Assembly: GCF_988243305.1 (NCBI RefSeq)
Contig: NZ_OZ547136.1
Length of the DNA: 64,000 bases
Reading direction: 5' to 3' (one strand)
In this document: positions 6,002 to 51,384 of the stretch, one piece after another
Numbering within the stretch: the first letter of the stretch is position 1
How the letters are laid out: each line of letters begins with the position of its first letter
Notes under the pieces: generated by a model
Databases searched by the model: none
What the model was told of the DNA's origin: nothing
What the model saw: only the letters and a program-made list of their open reading frames with translations
Made by a program: the position numbers and the translations under genes

Positions 6002-6249
6002 ATATATCCTTTTTTTGTAGGGTGGAATCTAACGCCTTTTTATAACGAGATTGCCCTAACTCATACCAATACACTTTTTTCATGTATCCGATAGTTATTC
6101 GATATCGATATATTTATATTTTTTCACTATTAATAGGCGGAAAAAACTGTATTGGTACTCTCCTTTCCATTGCATTAACAATATGCCGCTTTTAATCAAC
6201 CTTTTTATTAAGCAATCAACTAATAACGATCGGCATAGGGAATTATGCT

Positions 6250-7978: not shown

Positions 7979-8067
7979 CTGTTTTCTTTATGAATGGATG
8001 CAATAAATCAATTTTATTTCTCAAACTGGAAGAAGCACAATAGAACCATCGATCATCTGGAGTCTTT

Positions 8068-28130: not shown

Positions 28131-29432
28131 ATGAAACGGACAATGCTCTATCTTTCTCTGCTGGCTGTCAGCTGTAGCGTCAGCGCCGCAAAATACCCTG
28201 TTCTGACAGAAAGTTCGCCAGAGAAAGCAAGGTTCAACGTCGAACGGCTTAACCAGATGGATCGCTGGATTAGCCAGCAAGTGGACGCCGGTTATCCCGG
28301 CGTAAACCTGCTGATTATAAAAGATAATCAGATTGTGTATCGCAAAGCCTGGGGAGCGGCGAAAAAGTACGATGGCAGCGTATTGATGGAACAGCCTGTC
28401 AAAGCCACCACCGGGACGCTGTATGACCTGGCTTCCAATACCAAGATGTACGCCACTAACTTTGCTCTGCAAAAGCTAATGAGCGAAGGCAAGCTGCATC
28501 CTGACGATCGGATTGCGAAATATATTCCGGGATTTGCCGATAGTCCAAATGACACCATCAAAGGCAAAAACACGCTGCGGATTTCTGACCTGCTGCATCA
28601 CAGCGGCGGTTTCCCGGCAGATCCGCAATACCCGAATAAAGCGGTCGCGGGCGCGTTATATTCCCAGGATAAAGGCCAGACGCTGGAGATGATCAAGCGC
28701 ACGCCGCTGGAGTATCAGCCCGGCAGCAAGCATATCTACAGCGATGTCGATTATATGCTGCTTGGATTTATCGTCGAGTCGGTTACCGGTCAGCCACTTG
28801 ACCGCTATGTTGAAGAGTCGATTTATCGCCCGCTCGGCCTGACGCATACGGTGTTTAATCCGCTACTGAAAGGCTTTAAACCGCAACAAATTGCCGCCAC
28901 GGAACTCAACGGCAATACCCGCGATGGCGTGATCCATTTCCCGAATATCCGCACCTCCACTCTCTGGGGTCAGGTGCACGATGAAAAAGCCTTTTATTCG
29001 ATGGGCGGCGTTTCCGGGCACGCAGGTTTGTTTTCCAATACCGGCGATATTGCGGTGTTAATGCAAACGATGCTGAACGGCGGCGGCTATGGCGATGTGC
29101 AGCTGTTCAGTGCGGAAACGGTGAAGATGTTCACCACCAGCTCTAAGGAAGATGCCACTTTTGGCCTCGGCTGGCGCGTGAATGGTAATGCCACTATGAC
29201 GCCGACGTTTGGCACGCTGGCAAGCCCGCAAACCTACGGTCACACTGGCTGGACCGGGACGGTGACCGTTATCGATCCGGTGAATCATATGGCGATTGTG
29301 ATGTTAAGCAATAAGCCGCATTCGCCAGTAGCCGATCCGCAAAAGAATCCCAATATGTTCGAAAGCGGTCAGTTGCCGATTGCAACTTATGGTTGGGTGG
29401 TTGATCAGGTGTATGCGGCGTTAAAGCAGTAA
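28131..29432 (+). CDS. yfeW: Penicillin-binding protein 4B / class C beta-lactamase-like protein
   Basis: 433 aa from MKRTMLYLSLLAVSCSVSA (signal peptide); exact start uncertain. Confidence 0.88.
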   Translation: MKRTMLYLSLLAVSCSVSAAKYPVLTESSPEKARFNVERLNQMDRWISQQVDAGYPGVNLLIIKDNQIVYRKAWGAAKKYDGSVLMEQPVKATTGTLYDLASNTKMYATNFALQKLMSEGKLHPDDRIAKYIPGFADSPNDTIKGKNTLRISDLLHHSGGFPADPQYPNKAVAGALYSQDKGQTLEMIKRTPLEYQPGSKHIYSDVDYMLLGFIVESVTGQPLDRYVEESIYRPLGLTHTVFNPLLKGFKPQQIAATELNGNTRDGVIHFPNIRTSTLWGQVHDEKAFYSMGGVSGHAGLFSNTGDIAVLMQTMLNGGGYGDVQLFSAETVKMFTTSSKEDATFGLGWRVNGNATMTPTFGTLASPQTYGHTGWTGTVTVIDPVNHMAIVMLSNKPHSPVADPQKNPNMFESGQLPIATYGWVVDQVYAALKQ

Positions 29433-33973: not shown

Positions 33974-35026
33974 TCACCCCCATTCCCGCATCCGCTGATG
34001 CAGCGTCAGTGACGGCTTCTCGGCAAACAGTTGCTGATAATCCGTGGCGAATTGCCCCAGATGCCAGAATCCCCACTGCATGGCGGCGTCTTTTACCGTT
34101 GTGCTTTGCGACCAAGGGCTTATCAGTTCGCGGCGTACGGCGTTCAGGCGAATGCGTTTCAGCCACGCATTTGGGCCAATGCCTAAAATAGCGTGAAACG
34201 CGTTTTGTAGCGTGCGGCGGCTGACATGCAGTTGATTACACAAGTCCAGCACCGTCACCGGCTCAGACATATTTTCCAGCACATATTCACGGGCGCGGGA
34301 AAGTAATCTACGGTAACTCTGATGACTGATGCTTTCCGCCGTCACCATTGGTTGCGCTTCTTCCAGCATCGCCCCCATCGCCATGAGCAAATTATCCCCC
34401 AGCACTTTTCGCACTGCAGGCTGATGAAGATTTTCCGGGTTCTCGCAAAATGTCGCCAGCGCCTGTTGGACAAAGCCCCACAGCGCGGCTTTATGCTGCT
34501 CTTTCACTTCCAACGCCGACTGGCTACGCAGCATATGTAATACCCGATCCGGATTATGCAAAAAGTTAGCCTGACGGGTGATGACATCTTCAGAAAGCAC
34601 TACGCCCAGGATCGTGTAATCGTCCGGCGTACTTAATTCAAACTCGGTTCCACCAGGGCGCGTCGCTATTTCTGCGCTTCCCAGACATTGCGAACCGATA
34701 AATCCCTGCTCACCGCGCGTCGCCGGAATGCCAAACCAGAACGAATTCGGCCAGACCAGGCACGACTGACGCAGCGCCAGACCAGTGTATTCACGAAAAA
34801 CCTGAATATCATCGAGTAGAATTTCCGTAAATTCACCATGAAACTTGCCCGGATGCAGCTGATCGTAAATCTGCTGCCAGGCGGTAATCGTCAAAGCATG
34901 TTCATAGACATCCGTTGTCTGTCGTTGATGAACATTATCCACTTCGACCTTCGGCGTGAGCTTCAGGTTTTCGGGTAAGGGTTCATGATAAAGATGGTGC
35001 AAATTGGCTGTACGGGTCTTTTTCAT
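33974..35026 (-). CDS. eutR: AraC-family activator of the eut operon
   Basis: 350 aa; C-terminal AraC-type HTH. Confidence 0.93.
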
Positions 35027-35071
35027 GATGTTAATGCCGGGTGTTGTAGGACACCCGGCACCTCCGACAGG

Positions 35072-35572
35072 TTAATGGGGCTTGAGACGATAACGACTAC
35101 TGCGTTTACGTAACGTCCCGGCAGAAAAGAGCTGTTCGAGCGCATTTCTGGCTTTTTCGAGCGGCCAGCCAAAGTGGGCTGCCACTTCTCCTGCCGTCAT
35201 TCCCTGACGTACTGATGTTAACAGCGCCAACAACTCGTCAGCAGATTCCGCGACGATAACTGGCGCGTCGGGTTCCTTTACGGGTTGCTTCGGCTGGCGG
35301 TTAAAGCCAGTAACCAGCCACTGGGTGTCATCGTCTGGCCGACCGATCTCCTTACGGCTGATGACACGCCCGGTACGCATCGCGGCAGCACAACCTGCGT
35401 CCAGCGCCGCACGACACGCCGCCAGATCGCCTTCCACCACCAGCGTTAGGCGACCAGGGTCAAGCACTTCGTGACTGAGCAGACGAACGTTAGCTGCTTT
35501 GAGCATGGCATCAGCTGCATCTATCGCGGCGACCATGCCGTCCACTTCCAGCAATCCCAGTGCATTGATCAT
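35072..35572 (-). CDS. eutK: Microcompartment shell protein EutK (BMC domain + C-terminal helix-turn-helix)
   Basis: 166 aa MINALGLLEVDGMVAAIDAADAMLKAANV..., BMC fold signature. Confidence 0.9.
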   Translation of the reverse strand: MINALGLLEVDGMVAAIDAADAMLKAANVRLLSHEVLDPGRLTLVVEGDLAACRAALDAGCAAAMRTGRVISRKEIGRPDDDTQWLVTGFNRQPKQPVKEPDAPVIVAESADELLALLTSVRQGMTAGEVAAHFGWPLEKARNALEQLFSAGTLRKRSSRYRLKPH

Positions 35573-35584
35573 CGGCAACCTCCG

Positions 35585-36244
35585 TTACGCACGCTGGATA
35601 GGATTACGCGCGATTTCCAGCACTGCATCGGTAAAGGCGTTACAGGCTGCTTTACACGCGGCCTGGCTACCGGTTAAAAATGCTGCCGAGTAGTTGGTTT
35701 CAGACGGCGGCGGGACATAGGTCACCAGCTGCACGTCGGCAGATTTCAACGCTGCATCAATGCCATAGGTCGCTTCCAGCGGCGGTGCCACCAGATACGC
35801 CATCGGATCGCCAAGCGTGATCCCGGCGGTTGATGAGAGATAAGAACCGGTACGCGAAACTACATGTGCCAGGAAGGCTGTATTTTCTGCGTCATTAGCC
35901 CACTGGAAAGCCGCGCCATTTTCAATATGCGCAACCATCGCATCCAGACCAGCACGCACTTCCGCCGGGTTTGGCCCACCGAGCATAATCAGCACTTCAC
36001 CGGCAGTCGGTGACGGTCCGTGTGCAGCTCCCGCATACAGCGAGCGGCCATACACCACTTCGACCATCGCCTGCTTGGTCGCTTCGTCAGCCGCAATGTA
36101 GGTGACGTCATCGGAATCAGCAGAAATCAGCCCGAGGCTACGAATATGCGGCGGCAATTTCAGTTCACGCGCAAATTCGGCGTTAACGGAGGCAATCACC
36201 CGCATGGCGGTGACCGACGGTCGAATCAAATCTAAAGCTGGCAT
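35585..36244 (-). CDS. eutL: Microcompartment shell protein EutL (tandem BMC)
   Basis: 219 aa, position in eut operon. Confidence 0.93.
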
Positions 36245-36253
36245 GATGCCTCC

Positions 36254-37141
36254 TTATCGGGTCATGTTGATGCCGGATGCTTTCTGCTCCAGCATACGTT
36301 TCGCCAAATCCACAATGACGGCTGCGGCTTCAACCGGCGGCGTGCCGCCCTGGTGAATGTTAGAGATACAGGTACGGTCGGCCTCAACGGTGGTTGCCAT
36401 ACGCGGCGAGTAAACGGCGTAGCAGGAGAGGCTTTCTGACTGCCCTAATCCCGGGCGTTCCCCCACCAGTAGGATCACTACTTTCGCGCCGAGGATCTCA
36501 CCGATCTGATCTTCAATCTTCACGCGACCATAACGAACAAAGAATGGTGTACCGACTTTCAGCCCGGCCTGTTTCAGGCCCGCCATCAGCGGTGGCAGGA
36601 TCTCTTCGTAGTTCACGGTGATCGCATCAGTTGACAGCCCATCAGAAATAACGACCTGCACGTCCGGATTGGCAACACACTGCGCTTTCAGCGCTTCAAC
36701 AGCTTCTGCACACAGGCGGCGGCCCATATCCGGACGAGTCAGGTAGAGATTTTTGTCGCTAATTTCAGAGCGGACTTCCAGCAAGCCCTGCGCTTTCACC
36801 CACTCTTCCGGCACTTCTTTCAGTACGGTATCTTTCGAACGAGAGTGATCGGCCAGGAAACGCAGCAACGCCTGGGTACGCGGACGCGGACCGGCACGAC
36901 CGGTACAAACGCGGGCCACGGTGCTGCGACGCAGTTCTGTTAATACGTCTGCGCGATGCGGGTTTTCAACACCAATCCACGCTTTTGCTTCCGCAGAGCC
37001 TAAGTCCAGCGCGCAGCTTTCCGAGGTCACCGGTGCCGCACAGGTGGTGGTGGCGCACTTTGCTTCTGACGGCGCGGGGGCCGCTTGTCCCATTGACGCC
37101 ATCACGCTGCGTACAATTTCTTCAATCTGTTTTTGATCCAT
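36254..37141 (-). CDS. eutC: Ethanolamine ammonia-lyase small subunit
   Basis: 295 aa following eutB. Confidence 0.95.
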
Positions 37142-37161
37142 GATGTGTTATCTCCGCGTCA

Positions 37162-38523
37162 TCAGAAGAACAGTGACGGATCGCCCGCCCGTTTGGTCAG
37201 GCGACCGTTTGCCATAATGCCCATGCTTTCCAGCCAGCGTTCAAACTCCGGTGACGGGCGCAGGTTGAGTAACTGACGCACAGTGGCAGTGTCGTGGAAT
37301 GCGGTGGTCTGATAGTTGAGCATGATGTCATCGCCCAGCGGCATCCCCATGATGTAGTTGCAGCCTGCGGTGGCGAGCAGGATCATGAGGTTTTCGTTGA
37401 GGTTCTGGTCAGCGTCAGCGTGGTTGGTGTAGCAGCAGTCACAGCCCATAGAGATGCCGCTCAGCTTACCCATAAAGTGATCTTCTAAGCCCGCACGGAT
37501 AATCTGGCGGTCGTTGTAGAGATACTCCGGCCCAATAAAGCCGACCACGGTGTTGACGATAAACGGATCGTAATGACGCGCCAGCCCGTAGTTACGCGCT
37601 TCCATCGTCACCTGGTCTGCGCCGAAGTTAGCGCCAGCAGACAGCGCCGAACCTTGTCCGGTTTCGAAGTAGAGGCAGTTTTCCCCGGCGATACGGTTGA
37701 ACTCCGCGCCCACTGCGCGCGCTTCGTCGAGCATCGCCAGTTCCACGCCAAACTCTTTCAGCCCTTTTTCGCTGCCGCAGATACTCTGGAAAATCAGTCC
37801 GCCAGGCGCGCCGCGACGAATTGCTTCAATCTGGGTGGTGACGTGCGCCAGCACGCAGCCCTGGGTCGGAATGTTGTATTTGTCGATCACGCCATAGATG
37901 GTGTCCAACACGCGGCTTAAGTTTTCCACGTCGTCAGTCACCGGGTTAACGCCGATCACCGCATCGCCCACCCCGAAAGAAAGCCCTTCGTAGATTTGCG
38001 CGGCGATACTTTGCACGTCGTCACGGGTGTCGTTTGGCTGCAAGCGGGCGCTGAAGGTGCCCGGAATACCGATGGTGGTATTGGCCTTTTTGATCACCGG
38101 CATTTTCTTCGCGCCGTAGATCAGGTCCGCGTTGGAGCAAATCTTCGCTACCGCCGCGACCACTTCCGAGGTCAACCCTTTGCGGGTAAAGGCAATGTCG
38201 TCAACGCTGGTTTCGTCGCTCAGGACGTATTCACGCAGTTCGCTGATGCTCCAGTTTTTAATCTGGTTGTAGGCCGTTTCGTTAACGTCGTCCTGAATCA
38301 GCCGCGTCACGCAGTCATCTTCATAAGCAATCACCGGATTATTGCGGATGTCCGCTACGGTCATTTCCGACAACACCTGCTTTGCCGCCACGCGCTCCTG
38401 TGAGCTTGCCGCTGCGACGCCCGCCAGCACATCCCCCGAACGCAGTTCGTTGGCTTTAGCCAGCACCTCTTTTACATCCTTAAACTGATATACATTGCCG
38501 AACAATGTGGTCTTTAGTTTCAT
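37162..38523 (-). CDS. eutB: Ethanolamine ammonia-lyase large subunit
   Basis: 453 aa MKLKTTLFGNVYQFKDVKEVLAKANELRSGD... Confidence 0.96.
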   Translation of the reverse strand: MKLKTTLFGNVYQFKDVKEVLAKANELRSGDVLAGVAAASSQERVAAKQVLSEMTVADIRNNPVIAYEDDCVTRLIQDDVNETAYNQIKNWSISELREYVLSDETSVDDIAFTRKGLTSEVVAAVAKICSNADLIYGAKKMPVIKKANTTIGIPGTFSARLQPNDTRDDVQSIAAQIYEGLSFGVGDAVIGVNPVTDDVENLSRVLDTIYGVIDKYNIPTQGCVLAHVTTQIEAIRRGAPGGLIFQSICGSEKGLKEFGVELAMLDEARAVGAEFNRIAGENCLYFETGQGSALSAGANFGADQVTMEARNYGLARHYDPFIVNTVVGFIGPEYLYNDRQIIRAGLEDHFMGKLSGISMGCDCCYTNHADADQNLNENLMILLATAGCNYIMGMPLGDDIMLNYQTTAFHDTATVRQLLNLRPSPEFERWLESMGIMANGRLTKRAGDPSLFF

Positions 38524-38534
38524 AAGTCGTTCCC

Positions 38535-39938
38535 TCAGGAAGGAAATGCGAGTGATTTCACCGTCACCGGCACAACCGATCCGCCAAAAAGAGGCGTACC
38601 AATGTCGATATAGTCCCCCGCGCGGACAATCACTTCGTCAATGACTGCCAACGGGAGTTGTTGTAGCTGTGGGCGCAACAACATGCCCAGAGCTTTACCA
38701 AAGTCCTGCCCGGCCACCACCAGCAGGGGATGCGGATTCGGAAAACGCGCGACGAAATCGACCAGCGCGTTGATGACCGTCAGTACCGCGGCGTAACGCA
38801 CAGGCAGCGAGGCGGGAAGCGCCAGCACGTACGCGTCAGAATTGGGATCAAGATCCAGCTGAATCAGCGCCTGTTGCCAGGCACTCACCAGATCCGTTTC
38901 ATCAATTGGGATCGCCACCGGCAAATTGCGCAGCGGCAGTTGTACGCCCTCCAGCCAGATTGTGCTGCCAGAGAGCGAAAGGGTATGTGCACCCGCGCCA
39001 ATCACCGTGGCGCGTACGGTTTGCGCCGGAAACTGCACGTTCATCTCACGCAGGCGCGGATGGTCATGCAGCGCCGTTGCCAGAAGCGGGCCAATATCGG
39101 CAAAACAGAACGGGTCGGCGGGCTGGTGGCGATAACATTCGCCCACGCCGCCAGAAAGCGTAATGATTTCGGGCGTAACACCTGCGGGCAGCAAACCGGT
39201 TTGCATCAATGCCTGCGCGAGCGGCGAGAGCGTTCCGTCAATCACTTCGACAATCAGCTCTGCCATCCGCCGGGTAACCTGCACCAGCTGCGCGCCGGTC
39301 AGCGAACGGGCGTCGGTGCCTGCGCCGAAGCACTCATCCACAATCATCTGCCCCGGTTTATGAGCGTAAACCACGCGCCCCTGGCTGTCGGTTTCCAGCA
39401 GGCGACCACCGACGTTGAGGCAGGCAGTGCCGCTGATTTTTCCGGCATCGAACAGGGCGTAGTTCGCGGTGCCACCGCCGATGTCGATATTCAGTACCCG
39501 ACACAGCCGTTGTTCAGAAAGGGTTTGCGCCCCGGCACCGTGACCGGCGATCACGGATTCGAGATGCGGCCCGGCGCTGGCGACGACAAAATCGCCCAGC
39601 GACTGGGAGAGCGTCATCACCGCCGGGCGAGCGTTGCGGGTTTTCGCGCTTTCACCGGTGATGATGATGGCACCAGAATCAACGCTTTCCGGCGCAATGC
39701 CCGCAGCCTGATATTGCTCGAGGATTAAGGTTTTCAGTTCCGCTTCTTTTAAACCACCCTGTTTATCGACAGGGGTAAAGAACACCGGGCTTTGCCAGCT
39801 AATTTCGCGTTTGATGAATTCGTAGCGCGGCACCTGCGACACCGCCGCACGGTTAACCAGCTCCAGGTGGGAGAAGATCACTTGGGTGGTGGTGGTGCCG
39901 ATATCGATACCGACGCTCAGTAGCTGGCGAGTGTTCAC
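38535..39938 (-). CDS. eutA: Ethanolamine ammonia-lyase reactivase
   Basis: 467 aa; 11-bp spacer to eutB. Confidence 0.95.
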   Translation of the reverse strand: MNTRQLLSVGIDIGTTTTQVIFSHLELVNRAAVSQVPRYEFIKREISWQSPVFFTPVDKQGGLKEAELKTLILEQYQAAGIAPESVDSGAIIITGESAKTRNARPAVMTLSQSLGDFVVASAGPHLESVIAGHGAGAQTLSEQRLCRVLNIDIGGGTANYALFDAGKISGTACLNVGGRLLETDSQGRVVYAHKPGQMIVDECFGAGTDARSLTGAQLVQVTRRMAELIVEVIDGTLSPLAQALMQTGLLPAGVTPEIITLSGGVGECYRHQPADPFCFADIGPLLATALHDHPRLREMNVQFPAQTVRATVIGAGAHTLSLSGSTIWLEGVQLPLRNLPVAIPIDETDLVSAWQQALIQLDLDPNSDAYVLALPASLPVRYAAVLTVINALVDFVARFPNPHPLLVVAGQDFGKALGMLLRPQLQQLPLAVIDEVIVRAGDYIDIGTPLFGGSVVPVTVKSLAFPS

Positions 39939-41161
39939 GATTGTGCCTCCGCTTCGGTTTTGGCCGCGGTCGCGTCTTCTTTTGGCACCAGCATCATCGC
40001 CACGCCAATCGCCGTTACGCCGCCGATCAACTTGCCGACAATCATCGGGAAAATCATGGCGTTCATGTTGGCAGCGGCGAAGCCTAAGTGGTCACCCAGG
40101 GCGAAAGCAGCGGAAACGGCGAAGGCGCAGTTGATGACTTTGCCGCGGGTATCCATCTGCTTCATCATGCCAAACATTGGGATGTTGTTGGCAAGCGTTG
40201 CCACCATGCCAGCTGCCGCGATATTGTTCATATTCAGCACTTTACCGACGCTCATCAGCGGTTTTTCAAACCAGCGGGTCAGCAGCAATACCATCGGGTA
40301 CGCCCCTAACAGAACACAGGAGATAGAACCGATAACTTCAATGGCGCGCATCACTTCACCGGGTTTATCGCCAGGGGCCATAAAGATAGGATCCAGACCG
40401 GGGATCAGTTCCCAGCCAAGGAGGAATTTCACTACCGCGGCAGCAAGACCGAGGGTGATCAATGCAACGAGGAATTTGGCGAAGATCTGGAAGCCGTTGA
40501 TCATTTTTTCCGGGATGAATTTCAGCCCCAGCGCCACCAGCACCGCAACGATAAGTACCGGGATCATGTTCATCAGGATCAGCGCAAAGGTGAATTCCAC
40601 CGGCTGACCGTTGATCTGCACACCGGAGTACATAGCAACCAGACCACCAGCAATACAGCCAATCGGAATGGTCACAATGCCCGCCAGCACGCCGAGCGCC
40701 AGATAACGACGGTCAGAAGGTTCGATAATGCCGAGCGCCACCGGAATGGAAAACACAATCGTTGGCCCCATCATCGACCCGAGAATTAACCCAGAGTATA
40801 GCCACGCTGCTACGTCGCCGCCCGCCAGCTCTTTGGCGAGGAAGAAGCCGCCCATATCGCACGCCAGCAGTGTTCCGGCGAACATCGATGGGTTAGCGCC
40901 GAGCATTTCGTAAACCGGGATAATCACCGGTCCGAGTACGTGGGCCAGAACAGGTGCCAGCGCGGTCATACCAACCATCGCCAGGCCCAGTGCGCCCATT
41001 GCCATAAAGCCTTCTTCGAACTGCCCGCCGGATCCTTCGATACTTTTACCGAACTTACCGAGGAAACGAGCAGAACCGCCGAACTGCGACAGGATCCTGT
41101 CTACGGCAGCTATCAGCATAAAGAACATCATGATGTACATGATGATTTCGTTAATTCCCAT
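39935..41161 (-). CDS. eutH: Ethanolamine permease
   Basis: 408-aa polytopic membrane ORF. Confidence 0.95.
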   Translation of the reverse strand: MGINEIIMYIMMFFMLIAAVDRILSQFGGSARFLGKFGKSIEGSGGQFEEGFMAMGALGLAMVGMTALAPVLAHVLGPVIIPVYEMLGANPSMFAGTLLACDMGGFFLAKELAGGDVAAWLYSGLILGSMMGPTIVFSIPVALGIIEPSDRRYLALGVLAGIVTIPIGCIAGGLVAMYSGVQINGQPVEFTFALILMNMIPVLIVAVLVALGLKFIPEKMINGFQIFAKFLVALITLGLAAAVVKFLLGWELIPGLDPIFMAPGDKPGEVMRAIEVIGSISCVLLGAYPMVLLLTRWFEKPLMSVGKVLNMNNIAAAGMVATLANNIPMFGMMKQMDTRGKVINCAFAVSAAFALGDHLGFAAANMNAMIFPMIVGKLIGGVTAIGVAMMLVPKEDATAAKTEAEAQS

Positions 41162-41277
41162 CGCCTTTACTCCCTGTTAGTTGTTATTTATTGCCAATGC
41201 TGAAAGTGGGTTTTTCCCTCACTCTGGAAGCCGAGGGGCCGGGGTGAGGGTAATTGTTTGCACCGGCGCGACTCTGT

Positions 41278-41328
41278 TCCCCTCACCCTAACCCTCTCCC
41301 CAAAGGGGCGAGGGGACTGTCCGTACAC
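41278..41328. repeat. GC-rich dispersed intergenic repeat, copy 1 (between eutG and eutH)
   Basis: tcccctcaccctaaccctctccccaaaggggcgaggggactgtccgtac; near-identical copy at 54671-54720; partial inverted copies (gggtgaggg / ccctcactc) at about 41215-41255. Confidence 0.8.
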
Positions 41329-41330
41329 TT

Positions 41331-42518
41331 TTATTGCGCCGCTGCGTACAGGCCGACAATCTGCTCCAGGCTGGCGGTACGCGGGTTGCTGCGCAGACAA
41401 ATATCTTCCAGCGCGGCCTGCGCCCATGCACCGTAATGCGCAGATGTCGCACCAATATCGCCCAGTCGTTTACCAATCCCGACTTCCGCAATCAGCTCAC
41501 TTACCGCGTTAATAGCGTCACGATCGTCGGATTTTTTAGTTCGCAGCGCCCGACCAATCTGACTAAAGCGTTCACGACAAACCATCCGGTTAAATTCCAT
41601 CACCGTTGGCAGCAACATGGCGTTCGCCAGACCGTGCGGAATATGCAGCGCCGCCCCTGGCTGATGCGCCATCGCGTGGCACAACCCAAGCCCCGCACTG
41701 GAAAACGCCATTCCCGCCATACATGAAGCCAGCAACATGCTCTCGCGGGCGGCAAGGTCGTGACCGTAGCCCACCGCTTTCGGCAGTGATTTACCAATCA
41801 TCGCGATTGCGCCAATCGCCAGGCTGTCGGTAAACGGTGTAGCGTTCAGCGCGCTGTACGCTTCAATAGCATGGGTTAACGCATCAATGCCGGTCATCGC
41901 CGTGACATGCGACGGCACGCCTTCGGTCAGCGCAGCGTCGAGAATCGCCACATCCGGCATCAGCGAGGCGTGGGCTAACACCTGCTTGCGCCCGCTCACA
42001 GCGTCGATAATCACCGTTACGTTGGTGGTTTCAGAGCCGGTTCCGGCGGTCGTTGGAATGGCAACCAACGGCAGGCGCGGTTGCAGAATGCTGGTTTCTG
42101 ACATTTCTGCCAGCGTGCTATCGGGATTCGTCACCAGCAACGCCACGGCTTTTGCTGCATCCAGCACCGAGCCGCCGCCAAACGCAATCACCCCGTCACA
42201 GCCTGATTCACGCAACTGCGCCACGGCTGCACACACGTCGGTGATGCACGGTTCGCCCACCGGACATGGCCAGAGCGTCATGGCGATACCTTTAACGGCC
42301 AGGCTACGCGTCAGCCCGGCGGTCATCCCCGCCTGATGCAAAAAGCTGTCTGCCATCACGAACAGATGTTTCAGCCCACGCGTTTGCGCTTGCTGCCCGC
42401 AACTGCTCACCGCGCCCGGACCGCAAAGCGTCACCGGTGGAACGCTAAATGTTTTTACCCGTTGCAGATTCAGGGTATCGAACGCCTGAAAGAGCGCGGC
42501 CTGCAATTCATTTTGCAT
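41331..42518 (-). CDS. eutG: Iron-containing alcohol dehydrogenase
   Basis: 395 aa, Fe-ADH family. Confidence 0.95.
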   Translation of the reverse strand: MQNELQAALFQAFDTLNLQRVKTFSVPPVTLCGPGAVSSCGQQAQTRGLKHLFVMADSFLHQAGMTAGLTRSLAVKGIAMTLWPCPVGEPCITDVCAAVAQLRESGCDGVIAFGGGSVLDAAKAVALLVTNPDSTLAEMSETSILQPRLPLVAIPTTAGTGSETTNVTVIIDAVSGRKQVLAHASLMPDVAILDAALTEGVPSHVTAMTGIDALTHAIEAYSALNATPFTDSLAIGAIAMIGKSLPKAVGYGHDLAARESMLLASCMAGMAFSSAGLGLCHAMAHQPGAALHIPHGLANAMLLPTVMEFNRMVCRERFSQIGRALRTKKSDDRDAINAVSELIAEVGIGKRLGDIGATSAHYGAWAQAALEDICLRSNPRTASLEQIVGLYAAAQ

Positions 42519-43344
42519 AGATCCCCTCCGCTTTCTCTCGCCCGCTACTGGCGATCGCCAGCGGGGTCATAAACAAACTGTGTTGCGGTAGATGCACCTG
42601 TAACGCCGGGAATTGTTTGCAAAACAGTTCCGCCACGCCCGGTTGCATACAGGAGCCGCCCGCCAGCCATAAATCAGTAATGCCCTGCCCTTCAATATGC
42701 CGGGCGACAATGTCCGCCATTTTTTCGTACACCGGTTTCACCGCAGGCCAAATCTCGTCACCGTGACCGCGTTTGTACTGCTCTGCCTCTTCCAGCGAAA
42801 TACGGCGATTTCCGGCGAGAGTCAGAGAGATGTGATGTCCGCCGGTGGCTTCATCCGCCGAGTACGTCACTTTGCCCTTTTTCACGATGGCAATGCCGGT
42901 AGTGCCGCCGCCGATATCCACTACACCGGCGTTGTCCAGTTGCAGCAGATCCGCAACTGCGGTTGGCTCATCCAGCACATGGCTCACTTCCAGTCCGGCA
43001 GACTCCAGCACGTTGATGGAAATACGCGGGTCCGTACCAGGAGGAAATGAGGTCGCCGCATGGCTAAAACGGCGACCGAATTGCTGCTCAAGAGTGTCGA
43101 GATGGCGACGAACAATGGTGACCGCACCGAAGAAATCCCAGACGATGCCGTCGCGGACCACATCAGCCCAGTCGAGGCATACCGCCACCGGCTGACCGTC
43201 GCGGTCGACAACCATCGACACCACATCGCAGGTGCCCAGATCCACCCCCAGCCACAGCGGAGATTCCGTCGCGGCAGGCGTCTGGTTACACAGCGTTGCT
43301 GCTATGTGCAGACGTGGGGTGAGCCATTGTTCGTCGTGCGCCAT
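42508..43344 (-). CDS. eutJ: Hsp70/actin-fold chaperone-like protein EutJ
   Basis: 278 aa with DLGTCD / DIGGGTTG ATPase motifs. Confidence 0.95.
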   Translation of the reverse strand: MAHDEQWLTPRLHIAATLCNQTPAATESPLWLGVDLGTCDVVSMVVDRDGQPVAVCLDWADVVRDGIVWDFFGAVTIVRRHLDTLEQQFGRRFSHAATSFPPGTDPRISINVLESAGLEVSHVLDEPTAVADLLQLDNAGVVDIGGGTTGIAIVKKGKVTYSADEATGGHHISLTLAGNRRISLEEAEQYKRGHGDEIWPAVKPVYEKMADIVARHIEGQGITDLWLAGGSCMQPGVAELFCKQFPALQVHLPQHSLFMTPLAIASSGREKAEGIYAK

Positions 43345-43354
43345 CTGTTACTCC

Positions 43355-44758
43355 TTAAACAATGCGAAACGCATCGACTAATACACAGCGACGCAGACGG
43401 ACAAACGTCCGCGCGCTGGTTACCCCTTCACCGGTTGGCGTGGTGATGGTCATGGTGGTCCAGCCTTCCCCGCCCAGCCCCAGCCCGGCAATGCACGGTC
43501 CGTTCTTAACGAAAATGCTGGTATCAATGGCATTCGCCATCTGGTTCATGTTCTCGATATTGCGCGAGTGCATTGCCGCCGTGTGGTGGCAACCGCCTTC
43601 CAGTTTCACCGCCAGCGCAATGGCATCCGCCACGTTGGCAACGCGCACGACGGGCAGCACCGGCATCATCAGTTCAGTCACAGCAAACGGATGTTCTGCG
43701 GTGGTTTCTACAAACAGCAGTCGCGTTTGTTCCGGAACTTTAAGGCCGATTGCCGCCGCGATTTTCGCCGCATCACGACCAACCCAGTCACGGCTGACGG
43801 TGCCTTTTCCGCGCTCGTCGATATTTTTCAGCAACACCGGTTGCAGCTGCTGCGCCTGCTCTGCGGTCAGTTTCACCGCGTGCTGGCCTTCCATCAGACG
43901 CATCAGTTCATCGGCTACGCTATCCACAACAATCAGTACCTTTTCGTCGGCACAAATGATGTTGTTATCGAAAGACGCGCCTTTGACGATGGACTGAGCA
44001 GCACGGGCGAGGTCAGCGGTTTCATCCACCACTACCGGCGGGTTGCCAGCGCCTGCGGCAATCAGACGTTTATTGGTGTGTTTACGCGCCGCTTCTACTA
44101 CCGCTTCGCCGCCGGTCACCACCAGCAGGCCGATGCCCGGAAACTTGAACAAACGTTGTGCGGTTTCGATATCCGGATTGGCCACAGTAACCAGTAAGTT
44201 TTCCGGCCCGCCTGCGGCAACAATCGCCTGGTTGAGCAGCGTGATCGCCCGCTGGGAGACTTTTTTCGCCGCCGGATGCGGGGCAAAAATGACGCTGTTG
44301 CCCGCGGCAATCAGGCTGATGGCGTTGTTAATTACGGTTGCCGCCGGGTTGGTGGACGGAGTTACCGAAGCCACCACGCCCCAGGGCGCGTTTTCAATTA
44401 AAGTCAGGCCGTTGTCGCCCGTCAGCACTTGCGGAGAGAGACACTCAACGCCTGGCGTGCCGCGTGCCTGAGCGACGTTTTTGGCAAATTTATCTTCGAC
44501 GCGCCCCATGCCGGTTTCACTGACGGCAAGTTCCGCTAAATCTCTGGCGTGTTTTTCGCCTGCTTCACGAATGGCAGCAATGGCTAACTGGCGCATTGCC
44601 ACGCTCTTTAACCCTTGCTGGGCAATTTTGGCTGCCGCAACGGCGTCATCCAGGGACGCGAAAACGCCCATCTCATGAACGGCGGCGGGCGGCGTATCAC
44701 TGCTTTGCATTTTCAGCAGTACCGCTTTCACCACCTGTTCAATATCCTGTTGATTCAT
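43355..44758 (-). CDS. eutE: CoA-acylating acetaldehyde dehydrogenase
   Basis: 467 aa aldehyde dehydrogenase family. Confidence 0.95.
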   Translation of the reverse strand: MNQQDIEQVVKAVLLKMQSSDTPPAAVHEMGVFASLDDAVAAAKIAQQGLKSVAMRQLAIAAIREAGEKHARDLAELAVSETGMGRVEDKFAKNVAQARGTPGVECLSPQVLTGDNGLTLIENAPWGVVASVTPSTNPAATVINNAISLIAAGNSVIFAPHPAAKKVSQRAITLLNQAIVAAGGPENLLVTVANPDIETAQRLFKFPGIGLLVVTGGEAVVEAARKHTNKRLIAAGAGNPPVVVDETADLARAAQSIVKGASFDNNIICADEKVLIVVDSVADELMRLMEGQHAVKLTAEQAQQLQPVLLKNIDERGKGTVSRDWVGRDAAKIAAAIGLKVPEQTRLLFVETTAEHPFAVTELMMPVLPVVRVANVADAIALAVKLEGGCHHTAAMHSRNIENMNQMANAIDTSIFVKNGPCIAGLGLGGEGWTTMTITTPTGEGVTSARTFVRLRRCVLVDAFRIV

Positions 44759-44769
44759 GATGTTCTGCC

Positions 44770-45057
44770 TTATTTGTGGAAAATTACCTGACCGCCAGAC
44801 ACCACCTCATCGACGATGCCAATCACGCACAGATCGACCGGTGACGTTTCGCTTTTATGCGCCTGTCGGGCGGAACTGCCACTCACCAGCAACACCCACT
44901 CCCCGGTTCCCGCGCCAATATTGTCGATGGCGACGGCGCATTGCCCGTCAGGATTACCTTGTGGATCAATCATTTCCACCATCAGCAATTTGTCATGCGC
45001 CAGTCCGTGATGGCGTACGGTACAAACAATTTGTCCAGTGACGACTGCCAGTTTCAT
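44770..45057 (-). CDS. eutN: Microcompartment vertex protein (BMC-P)
   Basis: 95 aa MKLAVVTGQIVCTVRHHGLAHDKLLMVEM... Confidence 0.95.
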   Translation of the reverse strand: MKLAVVTGQIVCTVRHHGLAHDKLLMVEMIDPQGNPDGQCAVAIDNIGAGTGEWVLLVSGSSARQAHKSETSPVDLCVIGIVDEVVSGGQVIFHK

Positions 45058-45110
45058 ACCCGCCTCCGTGGCGTATTTCAGGTAAAAGCTCCCCCTACCC
45101 TCCGCGGAAG

Positions 45111-45156
45111 GAAAACTGAAAAAGGAGAGAGCGTGACGCCCGAATCGACGTCACAC
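45111..45156 (-). promoter_or_regulatory. Hairpin plus U-rich tract just after eutM (candidate partial terminator or mRNA-stabilising structure)
   Basis: On the minus-strand mRNA: GUGUGACG-ucgauucggg-CGUCACGC followed by UCUCUCCUUUUUCAGUUUUCC, starting 7 nt after the eutM stop. Confidence 0.3.
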
Positions 45157-45163
45157 AGGGTGA

Positions 45164-45457
45164 TTACAGGTTGCTGCTATCGCCTTTCAGGCCGATCGGG
45201 AAGACTTCTTCCAGGTCGCCGTGCGGACGCGGGATAACGTGAACAGATACCAGCTCGCCGATACGCTGTGCCGCTGCGGCACCGGCATCGGTCGCGGCTT
45301 TACAGGCTGCAACATCACCACGAACCATGGCAGTACACAGGCCGCCGCCAATCTGCTTAACACCAACCAGCTTGACGCGCGCAGCTTTCACCATCGCGTC
45401 AGAAGCCTCAATCAGTGCAACCAGGCCCCGGGTTTCGATCATTCCTAATGCTTCCAT
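45164..45457 (-). CDS. eutM: Major microcompartment shell protein (BMC-H)
   Basis: 97 aa [40 protein letters not shown]... Confidence 0.96.
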
Positions 45458-45495
45458 TGTGCTTTCCTCTTTATCAGGGTCCAGAACGGGACCGT

Positions 45496-46512
45496 TCATT
45501 CAACCAGTGTTTGTAAACTGCTTTCGCGGTTCACTTCTGTCTGACGCGGCACAGCTGCCACCAGCGCCAGCTCGATAATTTCCTGCACGCTACAACCACG
45601 AGAGAGATCGTGCATCGGCGCGGCAAGTCCTTGTATCAATGGCCCGACGGCACGATATCCGCCGAGTCGTTGTGCGATTTTGTAGCCAATATTTCCGGCT
45701 TCCAGCGACGGAAAAACCATCACATTGGCCTTGCCTTGTAGCGGGCTGGCAGGCGCTTTTTGCGCCGCCACTTCCGGCACGAAGGCGGCGTCAAACTGCA
45801 ACTCGCCATCGACTACCAACTGCGGCGCGCGCTCACGGACGATTTCTGTCGCCTGCTGGACGTTGGCAACGCAGGGGTGACGGGCGCTGCCGTTACTGGA
45901 AAACGACAACATCGCCACGCGCGGTTCTTCTCCGGTGATGGCCTGCCAGGTTTCGGCGCTGGCAAGCGCGATATCCGCCAACTGCGCCGCCGTCGGCTGT
46001 GGCACCACGCTGCAATCGGCAAAACCCAACGCCGGACCGCTGTACTGTGGCAGCATCAGGAAAATGGATGAGAGCGTTTTACAGCCTGGCTGCAAGCCGA
46101 TAATGCGTAATCCGGCACGCAGCACATTCGCCGTGGAAGAGAGGTTGCCCGCGATACAGACATCCGCTTTACCGGCGCTGACCATTGCTGCGGCGAACAT
46201 CAGCGGGTCGGTAAGTTTTTCCTGCGCATCCGGCGGCGTTTTTTCGCCCGCGCGGGCCAGCCAGCGATGAGCAAATTCTTCCCGCATTGCGAGGTTGCCA
46301 TGCGGATCAATCACCTGTAGCCCGTCCATCGCTACGCCATGACTGAGCGCAAACTGACGAAGTTCAAACGGATTAGCGACCAGAATGGGCGTTGCCAGAC
46401 CTTGTTGATGTAAATATTGCGCCGCTTTCAGCACACGCTGATCTAACGCATCCGGAAAAACCACTCTGGCGGGCGCTCGCAACGCCAGTTCACGACAACG
46501 TTCAATAATCAT
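45496..46512 (-). CDS. eutD: Phosphotransacetylase
   Basis: 338 aa PTA family. Confidence 0.95.
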
Positions 46513-47312
46513 TGCGTTTCCCCCAGTCGTTGTTGGATCTGCTTCACCGTTAGCGGCGGCTTCGTTACGCTCAGGATCATCATCACGTAGACCGTGCTGG
46601 AAAGGCGGTTCAGCGCCTGCAAGATGTCCGGGCGTAATACTTCAAAGCTGCGGGTGATAAAGACCTGCGCCGCTACGGTTTCGGTTTCCCGCACTTTGGT
46701 GCGTAGCAGATTGAGCAACGCCGCATCGCGCCCGTGGCTGGCTTCCGGCACCAGATGATCGTGGTCGAGATAGCGCAGCGGCTGATGAGAAAGCCGATGC
46801 AGATCTTCGTCAGAAAGCCCGACAATCGCTTGATCGCCCAGCGGTTCCCCCAGCGCATCGGCACGCATAATGTTGCCAAGACGCGAACGGATATCCGCCA
46901 GCCACGGCTGCCACGGTTCCGCCAGTTCAATTTGCAGCCACACTGCCAGCGCAATGGTGCTGTCGAGAACCGCGCGAAAACCCAGACGCGGATCGCTTTT
47001 GGCGACCATTTTTTCAGCCGACAGATGAGTCAGCGTGTCCGGCTTTTTTGCCACCGGCTGGCGGCACAGTTCGCAGCACGCCTGCGGATGTTCATCGCTA
47101 CTGGTCAGCCCGTGAACGGGCTGTGGCTGCTGCTGCTCATCGTCAACAAACAGGCGGCCCTGCTCGTCAATAAACTTGATGCGCAGATGGCGGCTTTCCA
47201 GTAACTCCCGGGCAGAGGGCGTCAGGCGACTGTCCGCAGGGAGATGGATCTCTGCGCCTTCGCTGAGCGTATGGTTCGCTCTTAGCCATGCTTCGGTGAT
47301 GAAATCGTTCAT
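46509..47312 (-). CDS. eutT: Ethanolamine-utilisation cobalamin adenosyltransferase
   Basis: 267 aa, 4-nt overlap with eutD and eutQ. Confidence 0.93.
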
Positions 47313-48010
47313 AGGGATTGCCAGTTAGCCGGCCAGGCGACATACAGGAATTTCACGCTGGATGTCGTACCAAATTCGATGCTGGAGCCTTTCGGGATAA
47401 ACATCACGTCACCCGCTTTGGCGATCATGGTTTCGCCTTCGTGGCGAACATGCAGCTCCCCTTCCAGCACCATGTCGATTTCGTCGTAGTTCAGGGTCCA
47501 CGGGAAGAAGGCGTTGTCCCACTGCATAAAACCGGCGGCCATGCTGCTGCCGTCGTCTCCGGTCACAAGATCAGTCAAGCCCACGCAATGCGGCTCTGCG
47601 CCGTCGAAACGACCAAACTTGACGCTGCTGCCATCAATCACTTTGATGCCGCCTTTGCCGGTCACCGATTTGAAGCTCGGCTGCATTGCGCCCTGCTCCA
47701 GCGACTGTTTTTCCTTCATCACTTTTTCCATCAGCTGCGCGACCAGGCTTTCGGTAAACTGGCCTTCCGGTAGCTGGGCGATGATGGTTTCGCGGATGCG
47801 CTGGCTTTCGGTTTTATCGGCTGGCACGCTGGCGGGAACGGACGCCGTTACCGGGGTCGATTCATCACATTCGGTGATGGTAAAACCCAGTAGATCCGCC
47901 ACTTCACGGGCTTCCGGGGTAATAATGCTGGCGCGCAGAACCACGGACATTGCCTGTTCGCCGCGCGCGTGTGCTTCACGAATATCATTCGCTGTGATGA
48001 GTTTTTTCAC
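47309..48010 (-). CDS. eutQ: Cupin-fold EutQ protein
   Basis: 233 aa, operon position. Confidence 0.93.
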   Translation of the reverse strand: MKKLITANDIREAHARGEQAMSVVLRASIITPEAREVADLLGFTITECDESTPVTASVPASVPADKTESQRIRETIIAQLPEGQFTESLVAQLMEKVMKEKQSLEQGAMQPSFKSVTGKGGIKVIDGSSVKFGRFDGAEPHCVGLTDLVTGDDGSSMAAGFMQWDNAFFPWTLNYDEIDMVLEGELHVRHEGETMIAKAGDVMFIPKGSSIEFGTTSSVKFLYVAWPANWQSL

Positions 48011-48464
48011 CTGCTTCCTCCTGTTTGGTGAGAGATGCCAGATAATCCACCAGTTGCTGCACGCTTTGCGGGTCGTGGCTGTTTAGCTCGAAAATCGGCT
48101 CTTCGAAGCCCGTCTCAAGCAATAACTTTCGCGTTGCGGCGACGTCAGCATCTGGCATGTCCGTTTTACTGATGACGGCGATTTGCCGTTTGCTGACGCC
48201 AATATCCAGCAACCCGGCAGGCAACCGACTTTCCGGGTCATTCGCGCCGTGGACATAGATCAGCATGTCCACATCCTGTAGAGTGGTAATTAAGGCGTGA
48301 TACCAGCGGGGATGGCTAAAATATTCACCCGGCGTATCAATATCACCCTTATCATTAAATTCTACGGCCTGCGTTTTTCTGGCGAGGGTATAATTCCCCT
48401 GCAACGCATTAAATAACGTTGTTTTTCCTGCCCCGACGGTACCCACAAACGCAATTCGTTTCAT
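47985..48464 (-). CDS. eutP: P-loop NTPase EutP
   Basis: 159 aa with Walker A GTVGAGKTT. Confidence 0.93.
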   Translation of the reverse strand: MKRIAFVGTVGAGKTTLFNALQGNYTLARKTQAVEFNDKGDIDTPGEYFSHPRWYHALITTLQDVDMLIYVHGANDPESRLPAGLLDIGVSKRQIAVISKTDMPDADVAATRKLLLETGFEEPIFELNSHDPQSVQQLVDYLASLTKQEEAGEKTHHSE

Positions 48465-48476
48465 GAATGCCTCGTA

Positions 48477-48812
48477 TTAACTTTTGGTCATTTCACAAAG
48501 CGTATAATTTAATAAGCGACCTAAACCGCTGACGGTTTGTGATAATGCTTCTTCTACTGCGCCTACCGAGCCATAAATCACCAATGCACCGCTGAAGCGG
48601 TCGAGAAAACCGATATGCACATCAGCGGCTTTCAGCGCTAAATCACCGGCGATCATCGCCGTTTCGCCAGGAGTTAGCGTCATAATGCCGATTGCGCCCG
48701 CATCCGGAACGCCGATTTTCTTCGCCAGTTCCTCGCCGGGATGCGCGATGAGATGCGCCAGCGTGACCTGTTTGCCGGGCACAAATTCCTGAATGATGCG
48801 TTCTTTATCCAT
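48477..48812 (-). CDS. eutS: Microcompartment shell protein EutS (permuted BMC)
   Basis: 111 aa from [23 protein letters not shown]...; first gene of the operon. Confidence 0.93.
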
Positions 48813-49054
48813 GAGTCGCCGCCTGTGAAAAACTTTCGTGTATCGTGACAATTTTTCGTCAGAGTAAATAACAAAATTCGGCAAGCGCGTTTAAAAGGTG
48901 AGGTAGATCACTAAGAATGGAGAGATATTTACTGTTATGAATAAACTTTCATATGCGACGCATGAATATAAATAAAATAATATCGAGATATTTCATATAC
49001 TGCTTTTTTTATTATTCGTAAACTCAGTAATAAGCTTTACTAATATATTTCAGG

Positions 49055-49087
49055 AAAACCGCTTACCCTGAATATTCAGGGTAAGCG
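49055..49087 (-). terminator. Intrinsic terminator of maeB
   Basis: Perfect 14-bp palindrome cgcttaccctgaat / attcagggtaagcg followed on the minus strand by a T-run, 18 nt after the maeB stop. Confidence 0.75.
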
Positions 49088-49104
49088 TGAGAGTTAAGAA
49101 TGAA

Positions 49105-51384
49105 TTACAGCGGTTGGGTTTGCGCTTCAACCACAGCCAGCGCCACCATGTTGACGATACGACGTACCGATGCGATCGGCGTTAACACGTGAACCGGTTT
49201 CGCCACGCCCATCAGCACCGGGCCGACAGTCACACCTTCCGAGCTGGAAACGCGCAATAAGTTGTAACTAATGCGGGCAGCTTCCATGTTCGGCATCACC
49301 AGGATATTAGCGGAACCTTTCAAAGGGCTGTCCGGCATACGGTCGCTGCGAATCGCTTCCACCAGCGCTGCATCGCCGTGCATTTCACCATCAATCATCA
49401 GTTCTGGTGCACGTTCCCTGACCAGTTCCAGCGCCTGACGCATTTTGCTCGACGACGGGCAGTCAGAAGAACCAAAGTTGGAGTGCGACAACAGAGCCAC
49501 GCGCGGTTCAATACCAAAACGACGAACAGTTTCTGCCGCCATCAAAGTGATCTCCGCCAGCTCTTCTGCGTCTGGTTCGTCATTGACGTATGTATCGGCA
49601 ATAAAGGTGTTACCACTCGGCAGCAGCAGCGCGTTCATGGCACCTGCGGTGTGAACGCCATCGCGATAACCAAAGACATTTTTCACCACGCTAAAATGTT
49701 CATGATAATCGCCCACCGTACCGCAGATCATTGCATCGGCTTCGCCACGCTGAACCATGATTGCGCCGATCACTGTCGGGTTACTGATCAATGCACGCTG
49801 CGCCTGTTCCTGAGTGACACCGCGACGCTTCATGATCTGGAAGTATTCAGTCCAGTACTCTTTAAAGCGCGGATCGGATTCGTTATTGACGATCTCAAAA
49901 TCAACACCCGCTTTGATCTGCAAGCCCAGTTTCTGAATGCGCATTTCGATCACGTTCGGACGACCGATAAGGATCGGTTTCGCCAGCCCCAGCGTTACCA
50001 GTTCCTGAGTGGCATGCAGAACGCGCGCCTCTTCCCCTTCCGGCAGAACGACGCGCTTCGGCGCTTTGCGAGCCTGGGAGAAAATCGGCTTCATAAACAG
50101 GTTGGTTTTGTAAACGAACTCCGTCAGCTTGTCGATGTAGACGTCGAAATCAGCAATCGGACGCGTCGCCACGCCCGACTCCATCGCCGCTTTCGCCACC
50201 GCAGGAGCGATCTTGACGATCAAGCGCGGATCAAACGGTTTTGGAATGATGTATTCCGGACCAAAGCTCAGATCCTGATCGCCATACGCTGAAGCCACCA
50301 CTTCACTCTGTTCCGCATGGGCCAGTTCTGCAATCGCGCGTACCGCCGCCAGTTTCATCTCTTCGTTGATGGCGGTTGCGCCAACGTCCAGCGCGCCACG
50401 GAAGATGAACGGGAAGCAAAGAACGTTGTTCACCTGGTTCGGGTAGTCGGAACGGCCGGTACAGATGATGGCATCCGGACGCACTTCTTTCGCCAGCGGC
50501 GGCAGAATTTCCGGTTCCGGGTTCGCCAGCGCCAGGATCATTGGCGCACGGGCCATTTTCTTCACCATTTCCTGGGTCAGCACTTTCGGGCCGGAACATC
50601 CCAGGAAAATATCCGCGCCTTCAATCACATCATCGAGGGTACGTTTGCCGTCATCCACCACCGCATATGCGGCTTTGGTTTCCGCCATGTTTGGCTCACG
50701 GCCCTGATAGATAACGCCTTTTGAATCGCAAACCACGATGTTATGTTTTTGCAGACCCAGCGCTACCAGCAGGTTCATACAGGCGATTGCTGCGGCACCC
50801 GCGCCGGAAACCACCATTCGCACGTCAGAGATGTTTTTCTCCACCACGCGCAAACCGTTGAGGATGGCGGCAGTGCTGATGATTGCCGTGCCGTGCTGAT
50901 CGTCGTGGAATACCGGAATATTCATCCGCTCGCGCAGTTTCTGTTCAATATAGAAACATTCTGGCGCTTTAATGTCTTCGAGGTTGATGCCGCCGAAGGT
51001 CGGTTCAAGCGCGGCGACGACTTCAATAAATTTGTCCGGGTCGAGTTCATCAACTTCAATGTCAAATACATCAATCCCGGCGAATTTCTTAAACAGAACG
51101 CCCTTGCCTTCCATCACCGGTTTGCCCGCCAGCGCGCCAATGTTGCCTAACCCCAGCACCGCCGTACCGTTAGAGATCACCGCCACCAGGTTACCGCGCG
51201 CGGTATATTTGTAGGCTTTTAACGGGTCTTTTTCGATTTCAAGACAAGGTGCGGCAACGCCTGGTGAGTAGGCCAGCGCCAGATCGCGCTGCGTTGCCAG
51301 AGGCTTGGTTGGAGAAACCTGGATTTTCCCTGGAACTGGAAATTCATGGAAATCAAGTGCACTTTGTTTTAACTGGTCATCCAT
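49105..51384 (-). CDS. maeB: NADP-dependent malic enzyme (malic enzyme + PTA-like C-terminal domain)
   Basis: 759 aa [47 protein letters not shown]... Confidence 0.97.

Follow-up and report, generated by a model that had tools for sequence, protein, structure and literature searches.

Ethanolamine use confers a growth advantage on gut Escherichia coli and Salmonella, and EutR, which activates the promoter upstream of eutS, also controls virulence genes (ler P2 and ssrB are other reported targets), which makes it worthwhile to chart the eut promoter precisely. The closest described relative of the locus considered here is eut P1 of Salmonella enterica and EHEC, a promoter dependent on EutR, ethanolamine and AdoCbl, with the same operon, gene order and position upstream of eutS. 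Reports on these organisms state that EutR binds the promoter immediately upstream of eutS, with binding to the P1 region described in both Salmonella and EHEC (PMC8565329, PMC4643982), and that EutR activates this promoter with ethanolamine and AdoCbl (PMC4643982, PMC8565329, PMC5821096); the main text of a Klebsiella pneumoniae paper mentions a putative EutR site and gives no sequence for it. The literature citing the primary EutR work yielded neither a base-level EutR site nor an EutR footprint for the eut promoter, and a literature search for the eutS transcription start gave no site-specific result. Over a 75-bp core, consisting of a CRP site, a conserved box, a -10 element and the start of the leader, E. 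coli and Salmonella are nearly identical. Upstream of this core, E. coli has maeB, a terminator of its own and a 130-bp AT-rich tract, whereas in S. enterica subsp. arizonae and diarizonae this position is taken by another gene, in divergent orientation, and by unrelated spacer sequence.

The architecture that we propose for eut resembles araBAD, rhaBAD and melAB in its poor -35 element, in an activator site that overlaps or abuts the -35 region (a box at -49 to -34), and in a CRP site located farther upstream at fixed helical spacing. Unlike those promoters, eut displays one conserved 16-bp box, a candidate EutR site only, rather than two direct-repeat half-sites, and its CRP site, at about -69.5 from the predicted start, is closer than those of ara and rha (-92 to -93). 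As a short, strongly AT-rich, lineage-specific segment adjoining a promoter, the upstream DNA also recalls H-NS-bound AT-rich promoter islands, for example those of horizontally acquired genes, but the eut tract spans only ~130 bp, is flanked by core genes of 53% GC, and matches the H-NS nucleation motif only weakly.

A first-pass annotation of the 64-kb stretch of DNA analysed here (hereafter the window) flagged 48885-49054, upstream of eutS, as AT-rich DNA containing an imperfect palindrome, and proposed it as a typical H-NS target and the expected location of the EutR-dependent promoter. The flagged interval belongs to the already-known eut control region, and the accepted picture of eut regulation is unchanged by our results. 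We find it probable that the region has two parts, namely a conserved module of CRP site, box and -10 element, and an Escherichia-specific, near-neutrally evolving AT-rich spacer in which a palindrome has arisen by chance. The eye-catching AT-rich tract and palindrome are distinct from the conserved control elements, and the 75-bp core (CRP site, box and -10) is the appropriate target for experiments. Useful outcomes of the analysis are the delimitation of this 75-bp module, a candidate EutR operator, and the recognition of the AT-rich DNA as a lineage-specific spacer carrying a Nac ChIP peak.

Genomic context of the eutS upstream region

The window derives from an E. coli chromosome; a 351-bp segment (48780-49130) is 100% identical to strain 7/2 and, used as a query, was matched in 5409 of 5426 complete E. 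coli genomes. According to the annotation of strain 7/2, the eut operon (33974-48812) is intact, with 17 genes in the order eutSPQTDMNEJGHABCLKR, all on the minus strand, of which eutS is the first and eutR (33974-35026, minus strand) the last. The upstream neighbour of eutS is maeB, also on the minus strand, with its stop at 49105. The maeB-eutS spacer therefore comprises 48813-49104 (292 bp), and 48885-49054 forms its central and upstream part. The placement of the flagged interval upstream of eutS is accordingly sound, since it lies within a spacer flanked by minus-strand eutS and maeB. The features bounding this spacer are as follows.

48477-48812, minus strand: eutS coding sequence, ATG at 48812 (open reading frame list, and RefSeq annotation of the 100%-identical strain 7/2)
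49060-49087, minus strand: maeB intrinsic terminator, a perfect 14+14 inverted repeat followed by GTTTTCC

The terminator consists of a GC-rich hairpin with 12 counted pairs (7 of them G-C) and a T-run, 3' of the maeB stop codon. In our alignment this hairpin is kept throughout Escherichia, and a different GC-rich hairpin occupies the position in other genera.

Relative to K-12, four-fold sites of the window differ by 10-13% in maeB, eutS and eutP, and by ~5% in eutQ (window 47309-51384). Two E. coli strains usually differ by less than 10-13% at such sites, and the excess might be explained by an old separation of phylogroups or by local recombination. The operon here is devoid of the CPZ-55 prophage that K-12 MG1655 carries between eutA and eutB. 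Elsewhere in the window, a gene for an IS200C-family transposase lies between pbp4B and yfeX (28832-29290), and a cluster of three tRNA-Val genes and tRNA-Lys, followed by an annotated RtT sRNA, is found downstream of gltX (1328-1881).

A promoter module shared across genera

Upstream regions were compared among 63 eutS loci, obtained by an EutS scan with one genome per species. Where maeB lies upstream, the spacer measures 153-160 bp in most Citrobacter, K. oxytoca-group Klebsiella, Pseudocitrobacter and Yokenella, against 284-292 bp in most members of Escherichia; in L006, a divergent lineage of that genus, it is 236 bp. The block common to these genera adjoins eutS (~48835-48925); homology to other genera stops at ~48925-48932, and from there to the maeB stop codon the aligned sequence is unrelated from genus to genus. 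The Escherichia-specific upstream part consists of that genus's own terminator hairpin (49060-49087) and the AT-rich tract.

Within the common block, the conserved promoter core extends over ~48835-48914. The core (117 bp compared) shows 0/117 differences from K-12, while four-fold sites differ by the 10-13% given above, and 5223 of 5398 E. coli records match it at 99% identity or more. Anchoring the upstream regions on TTGCCGA, followed by a formal alignment of 18 taxa, resolved two elements within it.

48869-48884, minus strand: conserved 16-bp box TTGCCGAATTTTGTTA (consensus TTGCCGAwwTTTGwTA), candidate EutR operator, from the 18-taxon alignment
48842-48850, minus strand: candidate extended -10 element TGtCACGAT (hexamer 48842-48847), proposed from conservation and its fixed offset from the box

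Twelve columns of the box (TTGCCGA..TT.G.TA) are invariant across the 18 taxa, which span three proteobacterial classes and include Escherichia, Morganella, Pseudomonas nicosulfuronedens, the beta-proteobacterium Iodobacter and the alpha-proteobacterium Telmatospirillum. The 64-kb window holds a single match to the consensus, without mismatch, at 48869-48884, and this remains the sole match when two mismatches are allowed. In all of these taxa 37-38 nt separate the start of the box from that of the downstream hexamer, which takes the forms CACGAT, CAGCAT, TAGCAT, TAGGAT, TAGTAT and TAAGAT. Its positions 2, 5 and 6 (A..AT), those that matter most in sigma-70 -10 elements, are conserved in at least 90% of the 18 taxa, and in Enterobacteriaceae a TG one base ahead of the hexamer completes an extended -10. 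No good -35 hexamer was seen in the core promoter, and a consensus promoter scan returned no sigma-70-like site at the stringency of the tool.

Placing the hexamer at -12 to -7 predicts an EutR-dependent start at ~48835, with the box at -49 to -34 and its centre at ~-41.5, which is where class II activators of the AraC/XylS type sit, overlapping the -35 region. From this geometry and conservation we infer that the box is the EutR site, which -10 element serves it and where transcription starts; the box is thus a candidate operator of AraC/XylS type. The mechanism that we propose is that EutR, with ethanolamine and AdoCbl, would occupy the box overlapping the -35 region and recruit RNA polymerase from about -41.5, while CRP, at about -70, would add catabolite control. 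The promoter-proximal ~30 bp of the flagged interval (48885-48915) would belong to this compact cross-genus module of CRP site, box and extended -10, and the remaining ~130 bp (48926-49054), which separate this module from the maeB terminator, form an AT-rich spacer peculiar to Escherichia and dispensable in other enterobacteria. The first-pass proposal of an EutR-dependent promoter in 48885-49054 is therefore only partly borne out: the control region of the eut operon does lie upstream of eutS, but most of the conserved core falls outside that interval, as do the box, both candidate -10 hexamers (48842-48847 and 48865-48870) and both candidate starts, all of them below 48885, leaving the CRP site (48894-48914) as the one core element inside.

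The CRP site and the position of the transcription start

The element of the core with direct binding data is the CRP site, together with which we list an alternative promoter and the leader that either start would produce.

48894-48914, minus strand: CRP-cAMP site ttAGTGAtctaccTCACCttt, core 48898-48911, centre 48904/5, identical to a K-12 Footprint-seq 21-mer
48859-48873, minus strand: alternative promoter with extended -10 TGtTATTTA (48865-48873) and start A48859, suggested by the -47 end of a Salmonella transcript design
48813-48858, minus strand: eutS 5' leader, 47 nt with a start at 48859 or ~23 nt with one at ~48835, both starts being predicted

A 2026 Footprint-seq preprint reports binding of CRP to ttAGTGAtctaccTCACCttt upstream of eutS in K-12 DNA in vitro, with a Kd of ~9 nM (~9.0 nM), and terms the site, centred at NC_000913.3 2575900, high-affinity and previously undescribed (PMC12871828, Table 1). 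The 21-mer in that catalogue is identical here, with no sequence difference (PMC12871828). We checked the published coordinates. Compared with the 22-bp consensus TGTGA-N6-TCACA, the site reads AGTGA-tctacc-TCACC, with four of five positions matching in each half-site and A/T-rich flanks. Across Enterobacterales, the start of GTGA-N6-TCAC precedes that of the box by 27 nt in almost all genomes sampled, with a weaker second half-site (TCAA or TCTC) in a few; it is absent from all three non-enteric genomes compared. The centre of the site falls at -69.5 relative to the predicted start at 48835 and at -45.5 relative to the candidate start at 48859. Canonical activating positions for CRP are -41.5, -61.5, -71.5 and so on, and the class of activation (I or II) depends on the position of the start.

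A start at 48859 (-47) as the main EutR-dependent promoter, served by the -10 element TGtTATTTA, would call for revision of the box and -10 model, with the box overlapping the spacer and -10 and CRP centred at -45.5. The suggestion comes from Salmonella, in which CsrA binds eutS RNA spanning -47 to +48 in EMSA (PMC10433801). In our alignment the 5' end of that RNA corresponds to A48859 of the window, and the design of an in vitro RNA from this homologous A suggests a known start, although the report does not call -47 a mapped start (PMC10433801). Conservation bears on the question in both directions. TGTTATTTAC does not vary among Escherichia, Salmonella, Citrobacter and K. oxytoca-group species, but the alternative -10 is kept only in Escherichia, Salmonella, Citrobacter and Klebsiella, with TATTTA decaying to TATCCC, TATTCC or GATAGG in Morganella, Buttiauxella, Pseudomonas and others, where the box and the downstream hexamer are fixed. 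Moreover, an AraC-type site at -26 to -11 and CRP at -45.5 would be atypical positions by general knowledge of class I and class II promoters. Because of this unusual geometry, and because TATTTA decays where box and hexamer persist, we favour a start near 48835 for the induced promoter, and consider 48859 to be a serious but distinctly less probable candidate.

The minus strand of the eutS leader also carries a direct repeat, ACGAAAGTTTTTCAC and ACGAAAAATTGTCAC (48825-48839 and 48845-48859), whose copies are 80% identical at 20-bp spacing; Salmonella and Citrobacter do not preserve the copy farther from the promoter.

An AT-rich spacer specific to Escherichia

The AT-richness of the flagged interval is real and extreme, with a GC content of 0.282 for 48885-49054 compared with 0.531 for the whole window; just 0.08% of all 170-bp windows are as GC-poor, which places it in the lowest 0.1%. 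This composition, falling to 0.233 in the sub-segment 48926-49054, agrees with the marked AT-richness of H-NS targets (GC 0.23-0.28 against 0.53). The upstream part is described as follows.

~48926-49054, no strand: Escherichia-specific AT-rich spacer, GC 23%, single-copy, evolving near-neutrally and containing the palindrome

Apart from this interval, the window has just two strongly AT-rich troughs, 5952-6285, in the 3' part of yfeN (OmpK family) beside the yfeN-yfeR spacer, and 7910-8113, inside yfeH (GC 0.28 and 0.31 per 170 bp, respectively).

In the alignment of maeB-eutS spacers, Citrobacter, Klebsiella, Pseudocitrobacter and Yokenella have no counterpart of the tract. E. coli genomes carry it as a single copy (median of one place per genome, at most two), and an origin as a repeat or mobile element was rejected on this ground. 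The tract is ~9% diverged from K-12, compared with 10-13% at the four-fold sites of maeB, eutS and eutP, and appears from this comparison to evolve at roughly the neutral rate within E. coli. Of 5313 E. coli records, only 345 match the tract at 99% identity or more, and 4105 do so at 90-95%. In the wider genus Escherichia, divergence of the distal half (48976-49054) from the two lineages L003 and L004 reaches ~40%, and L006 is without ~55 bp of the tract, including the palindrome block. The block 48944-48975 is somewhat better kept (4/32, 4/32 and 1/32 differences, against 19-31% at four-fold sites among Escherichia species), and may be under weak constraint. L006 is labelled E. coli SCPM-O-B-8794, and its ~30% four-fold divergence from the window in maeB and eutS equals that of named non-coli Escherichia; given this match, it probably falls outside E. 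coli sensu stricto.

As the AT-rich bulk (~48926-49054) and the palindrome are missing from the EutR-regulated eut promoters of other enterobacterial genera, and diverge near-neutrally, they cannot be the EutR-dependent promoter, and that part of the first-pass reading falls.

Proteins reported on the spacer

The tract might nevertheless act as an upstream platform, on which AT-preferring proteins (Nac, and possibly H-NS or StpA) add lineage-specific nitrogen or silencing control. The evidence includes a Nac ChIP-seq peak of K-12 at 2573898-2574145 (U00096.2), with its summit at 2574048 and an enrichment of 9.5, accompanied by a rise in eutS RPKM from 20 to 78 (3.8-fold) on induction of Nac, the factor being overexpressed (PMC5217608 and its supplement). 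In K-12 the summit lies at -221 from the eutS ATG, equivalent to ~49033 in the window, inside the AT-rich tract, which by this measure is not inert in vivo.

49030-49044, no strand: sequence under the Nac summit, ATAagctttactAAT, one mismatch from ATA-N9-TAT

Beyond this one-mismatch match, an exact ATA-N9-TAT, which we take to be the Nac consensus, occurs at 48977-48991, within DNA that is itself AT-rich; the scan as a whole is at chance level, with 8 matches in the window against 6.1 expected. Further points in favour of a platform are that ethanolamine is a nitrogen source, that GC content falls to 23%, that the block 48944-48975 has changed slightly less than four-fold sites among Escherichia species, and that an RpoS-holoenzyme SELEX peak is listed in the maeB-eutS spacer, near the Nac summit (PMC5493296). 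Against them stand the nature of the Nac data, which come from an induced, overexpressed factor with hundreds of peaks, many of them intragenic, and the chance-level motif matches. The tract is, besides, near-neutral within E. coli, has lost ~55 bp in L006, and is absent from other genera that regulate eut normally.

For H-NS, the searchable literature held nothing relevant on occupancy of the eutS upstream region or on its derepression in an hns mutant. The best match to TCGATAAATT, which we assume to be the H-NS nucleation motif, scores 8/10 at 48983-48992, as do 76 other sites in the window, and is uninformative. We also noted TATGAAAGTTTATTCATA, presumably ARG-box-like, which stands without a partner box.

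A regulatory role for the tract is possible, yet is not required by anything that we computed, and we rate the platform as a serious but distinctly less probable alternative. Were it borne out, the Nac peak could link eut to nitrogen status. With similar reserve we entertain a broader scenario, in which the tract would be an Escherichia-only addition, a landing pad for Nac and perhaps H-NS, to an ancient CRP/EutR promoter, conferring a response of eut to nitrogen limitation only in that genus; separately, TTGCCGAwwTTTGwTA would be the EutR operator common to alpha-, beta- and gamma-proteobacteria.

The inverted repeat and short open reading frames

The imperfect palindrome noted in the first-pass annotation is present.

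48948-48966, no strand: imperfect palindrome ttcatatgcg/acgcatgaa, of chance-level symmetry, with a polymorphic centre

Its core is perfect (ATGCG-a-CGCAT, 48953-48963), and three further pairs require a 2-nt bulge (5+3 = 8 bp). It is not among the repeats reported by a repeat search of the region, and an inverted repeat at least as good turns up in 57% of 1000 shuffles of these 170 bp that preserve dinucleotide content. At the centre, G48957 is replaced by A in K-12, in an O145 strain, in a soil isolate and in a genome of a cryptic clade, and the block is wholly deleted in Escherichia lineage L006. The significance attached to the palindrome has thus dissolved, though its existence has not, and it is a chance feature of AT-rich DNA. 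That it might be the operator of a dimeric transcription factor, EutR or another, is very improbable in our estimation: the surrounding ATTCATGCGyyGCATATGAAAGTTTAT is the best-conserved part of the Escherichia-specific tract, but there is no dyad symmetry beyond chance, K-12 and most of the strains compared lack the central base pair, and the block is missing in other EutR-regulated genera as well as in L006. AraC-family proteins, furthermore, typically use asymmetric or direct-repeat sites.

Least credible of all is that the tract encodes a tiny protein or small RNA, for although a plus-strand frame (48938-48976, MNKLSYATHEYK) remains uninterrupted in four Escherichia lineages, beginning with ATG or GTG, and is preceded by GGAGAG, this Shine-Dalgarno-like sequence lies 11 nt from the ATG, the start codon of the minus-strand frame MKYLDIILFIFMRRI is missing in L003, the RefSeq records annotate no feature, there is neither an Rfam match nor excess structure, and the frames are rejected as coding on a substitution pattern that is not protein-like, being mostly non-synonymous or nonsense (N/H/Y, T/A, an early stop) against one synonymous change. 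As to structured RNA in the tract, an Rfam scan of 48300-49600 gave only a sub-threshold match to Listeria rli38 (26 bits, gathering score 49, E 0.45), and folding of 48916-49058 on both strands showed no excess energy (z-scores -0.14 and +0.06); these two results exclude it.

Insertions and deletions at the maeB-eutS junction

Several genomes in the comparative set carry additional DNA in this spacer. Three loci (L016, L026 and L029, upstream of eutS at locus positions ~2130-2400), those of C. amalonaticus S646 (370 bp), of Citrobacter MGH106 (284 bp) and of K. pneumoniae (218 bp), have different, independent and mutually unrelated insertions at one and the same place, between the maeB terminator and the eut core promoter. 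To judge from these alignments, this junction seems to have received insertions repeatedly. In E. coli GDSC2239PM (L066, locus 516-2571), an IS1A follows immediately after the maeB terminator and abuts an eutE that has lost its N-terminus, the eut promoter and eutS through eutN being deleted. The insert of C. amalonaticus S646 contains GC-rich inverted repeats and is reminiscent of a small repetitive element.
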